Below are positions 40,848 through 40,884 of a stretch of DNA of 64,000 nt, piece by piece. The stretch is from assembly GCF_054482595.1 (NCBI RefSeq), contig NZ_CM137008.1. One strand, written 5' to 3'. Each line of letters starts with the position of its first letter. Position 1 is the stretch's first letter. Made by a program: the position numbers and the translations under genes. A model generated the notes under the pieces. That model was given only the letters and a program-made list of their open reading frames with translations. It did no database searches and had not been told where the DNA came from.

Positions 40848-40884
40848 TGCACTGGTAGCTATAGAGCCAGGGGCGGTAGCTTGT
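40848..40884 (+). promoter_or_regulatory. JUMPStart/ops element upstream of the O-antigen genes
   Basis: gcactggtagctatagagccaggggcggtagcttg; ops-like GGCGGTAGCTTG at 40872-40883. Confidence 0.8.

Follow-up and report, generated by a model that had tools for sequence, protein, structure and literature searches.

The window analysed here, that is the whole stretch of DNA of 64,000 nucleotides (64 kb), carries an O-antigen gene cluster lying between galF and gnd, with a gnu-type gene upstream of galF. The genes of this region are the following:

38480-39475, gnu-type Und-PP-GlcNAc 4-epimerase gene, between wcaM and galF
39718-40611, + strand, galF, the upstream flanking gene (NCBIfam TIGR01105, 681.5 bits for a cut-off of 659.2)
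40961-42208, + strand, wzx, O160 O-antigen flippase, first gene of the operon (Pfam PF01943 Polysacc_synt, E = 2.3e-41)
42198-43199, + strand, GT2 (ORF and family match)
43199-44131, + strand, GT-A (ORF and family match)
44128-45228, + strand, wzy (the gene at the matching position of RefSeq locus L001 is annotated as 'O160 family O-antigen polymerase')
45225-46244, + strand, Stealth-family phosphotransferase with regions CR1-CR4 (PF11380, E = 7e-39)
46251-47069, + strand, GT2, last gene of the cluster (ORF and family match)
47218-48624, gnd, after the cluster

The six co-directional genes of the cluster, of 28-33% GC, are tightly packed, neighbours either overlapping or lying no more than 6 nt apart, and wzx and wzy are serogroup-specific. 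The GC content is 0.28-0.34 over 40500-47000 against 0.42-0.56 on either side, which bears out the "AT-rich cluster" of the initial annotation of this DNA. As the translation of wzx is identical to the CDS WP_000053770.1 of L001, annotated as 'O160 family O-antigen flippase', and as the region aligns to this RefSeq locus, we identified the cluster as the E. coli O160 O-antigen cluster. NCBIfam gave no match for wzx, wzy or the Stealth protein, for which we relied on Pfam and on the RefSeq annotation. A gnu gene is found upstream of galF in serogroups with a GalNAc-first O-unit, the published O160 included, and the O160 polysaccharide contains phosphate (PMC7685785). The presence of a Stealth gene in the cluster is consistent with such a phosphate-containing polysaccharide.

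Upstream of the cluster, galF is followed by a structure that resembles a terminator:

40643-40684 (hairpin) and 40684-40689 (T6 run), + strand, terminator-like hairpin with T6 run, found by folding

This hairpin starts 32 nt past the galF stop, and the T6 run begins with its last pair. With a dG of -18.5 kcal/mol and a z of -4.5, it is matched by none of 200 shuffled sequences, and it probably represents the galF terminator that had been placed upstream of the element. In K-12, a hairpin of another sequence is found at the equivalent place after galF (z = -8.7). A simple consensus scan of 40400-41100 detected no terminator, the galF hairpin emerging by folding alone, presumably because an inner bulge splits its stem. 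In two O160-type genomes (NZ_CP196743.1 and NZ_CM135826.1), the match to the galF-wzx intergenic region begins at query base 40 (window 40651) and a second matching place is present, which suggests an insertion or rearrangement within this hairpin.

The 3′ end of galF itself (40558-40611, about 54 nt) becomes AT-rich and is identical to K-12 at 31 of 54 positions only, against 53-59 of 60 in all earlier bins. At the protein level, the C-terminus of GalF, ...GAKFRKGIEKLLSE, is changed to a different end of 14 residues. The drop in identity over these last nucleotides places the recombination junction of the O160 cassette inside galF, and the limit between backbone and serogroup-specific DNA lies about 285 bp upstream of the JUMPStart element described below.

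Between galF and wzx, we located the following features on the + strand, together with a second copy of the element elsewhere in the window:

40845-40883, + strand, JUMPStart element, 39 bp, TAGTGCACTGGTAGCTATAGAGCCAGGGGCGGTAGCTTG (Rfam RF01707; cross-serogroup identity)
40852-40870, + strand, Rfam JUMPstart hairpin, CUGGU (40852-40856) pairing with GCCAG (40866-40870) around a 9-nt loop
40872-40883, + strand, ops site GGCGGTAGCTTG, fitting the consensus GGCGGTAGnnTG, with T at position 10 and the pause TG at positions 11-12
40884-40960, + strand, remaining 5′ leader, 77 nt, AT-rich (read from the sequence)
15190-15228, + strand, second JUMPStart/ops, GGCGGTAGCGTG, upstream of wza in the colanic acid operon (RF01707, 57.3 bits)

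The Rfam model RF01707 is matched over its full length (1-38 of 38) at 40845-40883 on the + strand. The cmscan score of 51.1 bits is above the gathering score of 35 bits, with an E value of 1e-08 for the whole window and of 6e-11 for a local search. The match to the JUMPStart consensus announced by the initial annotation is therefore borne out, and its coordinates (40848-40884) are off by a single base at either end, the 35-mer that it quoted, gcactggtagctatagagccaggggcggtagcttg, corresponding to 40849-40883. The 3′ part of the element reads GGTAGC-TATAGAG-CCAGGGGCGGTAG, in which the ops octamer GGCGGTAG is preceded by the GGTAGC...GCCAGG half. We also carried out the consensus alignment that had been proposed as a check, using eight E. 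coli copies: the two of the window, the O111 copy, three from galF-rfbB regions (one of them from K-12), one downstream of galF in A287 and the wza copy of O157. The O160 JUMPStart agrees with the majority at 35 of 39 positions and departs from it at four (positions 1, 17, 20 and 37), while AGCCAGGGGCGGTAGC and the TG at positions 11-12 of ops are invariant across the eight copies.

The 12-nt ops consensus, GGCGGTAGnnTG, holds two 'n', one of which is position 10 (PMC9562583). Of its 12 bases, 3-8 make the contacts with RfaH, and pausing is brought about by the TG at 11-12 (PMC5995543). In the O160 ops, both the RfaH-contacting core and the pause TG are intact, and the site lies on the non-template (+) strand, that is, on the same strand as wzx and the following genes. 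The only ORFs in the leader are those of 20-38 aa listed mechanically, none of which is credible, so that the O160 ops, if transcribed as we infer, would stand in an untranslated 5′ leader.

Could such a match be a chance resemblance in an intergenic region? The consensus 12-mer GGCGGTAGNNTG has two matches in the 64 kb (15217-15228 and 40872-40883), where 0.08 are expected by shuffling, and none of 100 shuffles contains two. Both matches fall within JUMPStart copies, one in the O160 leader and the other upstream of wza. The only point that could speak for chance is that the bare octamer GGCGGTAG is found six times in the window (1.2 expected), four of these occurrences being outside the two elements:

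3751-3758, - strand, extra octamer
14630-14637, + strand, extra octamer
42104-42111, + strand, extra octamer, inside the wzx ORF on the non-template strand
51042-51049, + strand, extra octamer, inside the ORF 50839-51876

All four lack TG at positions 11-12 and we rejected them as ops sites. In CFT073, intragenic ops-like sites were likewise found by ChIP to be unused for RfaH loading (PMC9765446). Taken with the Rfam E value of 1e-08 and the 12-mer expectation of 0.08, these observations rule out chance resemblance. On sequence grounds, 40845-40883 is confirmed as a genuine canonical JUMPStart/ops heading the O-antigen operon of E. coli O160. Elements of this class are already known, and the copy present here appears real and functional-looking.

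The conservation of the element stands out from that of its surroundings. The 349-bp galF-wzx intergenic region was found in 15 of 5426 complete E. coli genomes, always with at least 99% identity, and the 233 bp that separate galF from the element are confined to the same 15 genomes, even by blastn with a word size of 11. This search thus recovered O160 genomes alone, and no relatives of the 233 bp in other serogroups. The intergenic region is 100% identical in 11 O160-annotated genomes; comparing identities across the 15 O160 genomes gives one or two intergenic mismatches per genome, all of them upstream of the element. By contrast, a 46-base query containing the 39-mer retrieved JUMPStart-like copies in 5425 of the 5426 genomes, the median genome having three such places. 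The O160 39-mer is 82-92% identical to those of four other serogroups, while both of its flanks show 36-45% identity only, and we therefore consider it as an island of conservation in otherwise unrelated imported DNA. The sequence, strand, position, conservation and context of the element are all directly observed.

The JUMPStart elements of the K-12 rfbB and O111 clusters share with the O160 copy the 39-bp length, the orientation, the position between galF and the first gene and the ops at the end, with identities of 87% (K-12) and 92% (O111). The O160 cluster differs from K-12-type clusters in that its first gene is wzx and not rfbB/rmlB, and in that the flanking promoter and leader DNA is O160-specific. 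Beyond E. coli, one genome per species was scanned for the exact pattern, with at least 120 matches, most of them from Enterobacterales and Aeromonas; among the 120 matches listed, the internal 7-nt spacing of the O160 copy is the commonest (74/120). A JUMPStart sequence upstream of the O-antigen (rfb) clusters of E. coli and Salmonella was reportedly described by Hobbs and Reeves in 1994. The 39-bp element has since served as the standard upstream boundary of E. coli O-antigen clusters and as a PCR primer site for them (PMC4384082).

The second element of the window, upstream of wza, belongs to the same Rfam family and is identical to the O160 copy over the bases AGCCAGGGGCGGTAGC; in O157:H7, too, this element has been annotated upstream of wza. 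The two copies of the window differ at 6 of the first 22 positions, in their upstream half, and the wza leader is longer: about 178 nt separate the element from the wza ATG, compared with 77 nt for the wzx ATG in O160. The wza locus of CFT073 is also subject to silencing at the stage of initiation (PMC9765446). The last three bases of ops had been said to differ between the two copies, and this has to be corrected: the tails read TTG in O160 and GTG in wza, and the sole difference between GGCGGTAGCTTG and the ops of the wza copy (GGCGGTAGCGTG) is a T instead of a G at position 10, an 'n' of the consensus.

What could this T10 mean? Among the 120 cross-species matches listed, the ops tail is CGTG in 82, CATG in 5 and CCTG in 3, and CTTG is found in none. 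The ops of the E. coli O111 cluster likewise ends with CTTG. A search of the literature for the exact variant GGCGGTAGCTTG returned no paper. In an in vivo lux reporter, all ops substitutions except G2C lowered the RfaH effect, G10C included, the strongest defects being seen at G5, T6, G8 and T11 (PMC5995543). Since T10 is not the majority G and since G10C lowered the RfaH effect, the O160 ops may be somewhat weaker. T10 could have a modest quantitative effect on RfaH action, and nothing points to a loss of function. One may go further and propose that T10, being common to O160 and O111, is a tuned variant that alters pause strength or RfaH loading, an idea that we regard as unlikely; if true, it would set a serogroup-specific level of O-antigen expression, as opposed to a neutral change at an 'n'.

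The same variant could be taken in the opposite direction, by viewing the element as a conserved relic or a recombination landmark on which O160 expression does not depend, for instance because T10 weakens the pause. The departure of T10 from the majority, with CTTG in none of the listed cross-species matches and CGTG in 82, is what would favour such a reading. Nonetheless, the consensus has an 'n' at position 10, where A and C also occur naturally, and the O111 cluster, which is expressed, has the same CTTG. A mere landmark is disfavoured by the position of the recombination junction, which lies within the last 54 nt or so of galF, about 285 bp upstream, and not at JUMPStart. Moreover, the 39-mer has been kept within otherwise unrelated imported DNA, and this island of conservation makes a functionless relic appear unlikely. 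Altogether, we give the relic or landmark reading hardly any credence, and consider the O160 element as an ops-bearing JUMPStart that is probably in use.

The upstream half of the element raises a distinct possibility, namely that its hairpin acts in the RNA of the 5′ UTR, on stability, processing or translation, either besides ops and RfaH or independently of them. Indeed, all five stem pairs of the Rfam model are standard pairs in the cmscan alignment of the O160 copy, and the stem is present in both the MFE and the centroid folds of the leader. Among the cross-species matches listed, 90 copies have a TG tail, and the free 5′ partners are CT in 62 and TT in 26 of them; both keep a C-G or U-G pairing, which is a pair in RNA and a mismatch in DNA. 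It should be kept in mind that, across the 120 matches listed, the variation in the hairpin consists of one-sided C-to-U changes only, the 3′ arm having been fixed by the search pattern. Against a role of this RNA structure, neither the 39-mer (z = +0.52) nor the 126-nt leader (z = -0.19) folds better than shuffled sequences, so that no unusual structure is seen in either, and the MFE fold of the wza copy does not contain the Rfam stem. Finally, the established mechanism works via the non-template DNA (PMC5995543). We therefore hold an RNA-level function of the hairpin as very unlikely, although not quite as improbable as the relic, and favour ops on the non-template strand as the probable active part of the element.

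The distance of "about 80 bp" that had been given between the element and wzx is close to the mark, with 77 nt between the end of ops (40883) and the wzx ATG (40961). The last 20 nt before this ATG contain no G and hence no Shine-Dalgarno motif. We also looked for a promoter between the terminator-like hairpin and JUMPStart, where a sole candidate was found:

40697-40724, + strand, candidate sigma-70-like promoter, TTGGTA-16 nt-TATATT, weak (9 of 12 consensus matches)

This site is no better than chance, as one was found where 2.3 are expected in shuffles, and a relaxed promoter scan gave nothing better. An alignment of galF-rfb intergenic regions (K-12, O111 and others) likewise revealed no conserved promoter block for O160.

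Altogether, we propose that the element is very probably the JUMPStart of the O160 rfb operon, its 3′ ops loading RfaH for operon-wide antitermination. Transcription would begin past the galF terminator, from a promoter located ahead of the element. RNA polymerase transcribing GGCGGTAGCTTG would then pause at U11, given a TG at positions 11-12 in keeping with the consensus pause, and the exposed non-template strand would fold into a small hairpin (C3:G8) showing G5 and T6 to RfaH. This is the mechanism described for ops, with a pause at U11 and a non-template C3:G8 hairpin that presents G5 and T6 (PMC5995543). Upon binding of RfaH, its C-terminal domain would refold, and the protein would ride with the polymerase from wzx to the last glycosyltransferase gene. 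Bound RfaH is expected to suppress pausing and backtracking, to exclude NusG and hence Rho-dependent termination, to counter H-NS silencing of the AT-rich cluster DNA, and to help recruit ribosomes to genes that have no Shine-Dalgarno, such as wzx. The low GC content, the tight packing of the genes and the absence of a Shine-Dalgarno at wzx all fit this picture of RfaH action.

The pause, the loading of RfaH and the effect on expression at O160 are proposed here by analogy with systems in which they have been studied. Antitermination by RfaH is the function established for elements of this type, and the reading given in the initial annotation is supported at the sequence level. ChIP in CFT073 detects RfaH on the O-antigen (wzx) operon from its single leader ops onwards, and RfaH counteracts H-NS/StpA filaments on AT-rich DNA (PMC9765446). 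The ops sites of the RfaH regulon (waaQ/rfa, hlyCABD, kps, tra and wza) also carry GGCGGTAGnnTG on the non-template strand within a 5′ leader, as does O160, and similarly precede long AT-rich operons that encode cell-surface structures (PMC5995543, PMC9765446). The O160 site differs from the model ops of the structural and biochemical work by its T at position 10, where the latter has a G, and its dependence on RfaH would follow from its likeness to these sites. The rfaH gene lies outside the 64-kb window. It is a core E. coli gene.

The element thus marks the 5′ boundary of the O160 O-antigen operon and is likely to be its RfaH-dependent control point. This can be of use for defining the transcription unit, for designing serogroup PCR and for correct annotation, and for little beyond. 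It opens no new question. Descriptions of JUMPStart/ops elements heading O-antigen clusters go back to 1994, and structural work has established how they act. It does lead to the prediction that rfaH mutants of O160 strains would make less O-antigen or none.

We also noted several other features of the window. A degenerate IS200 is located between gnd and ugd (48689-49280), with an Rfam match to STnc490 at 48689-48812 (144 bits). Its tnpA frame is broken by a stop into two ORFs (48771-48896 and 48903-49280), and an IS200/IS605 transposase pseudogene is annotated at this place in the matching RefSeq locus. Further Rfam matches are to algC RNA (29791-29840, + strand), naRNA4 (34230-34300, - strand), the his operon leader (59053-59176, - strand) and the sRNA STnc240 (61916-61990, + strand), as expected for this chromosomal region. 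In strain EC71 (L001 26409-28349), mannose-pathway genes follow wzzB after the O160 locus; one encodes a mannose-1-phosphate guanylyltransferase/mannose-6-phosphate isomerase, and the other is annotated as 'O9 family phosphomannomutase RfbK'. Just short of these EC71 genes, at about position 52077 of the window, the alignment to L001 ends; further along, the window has the his leader at 59053-59176.
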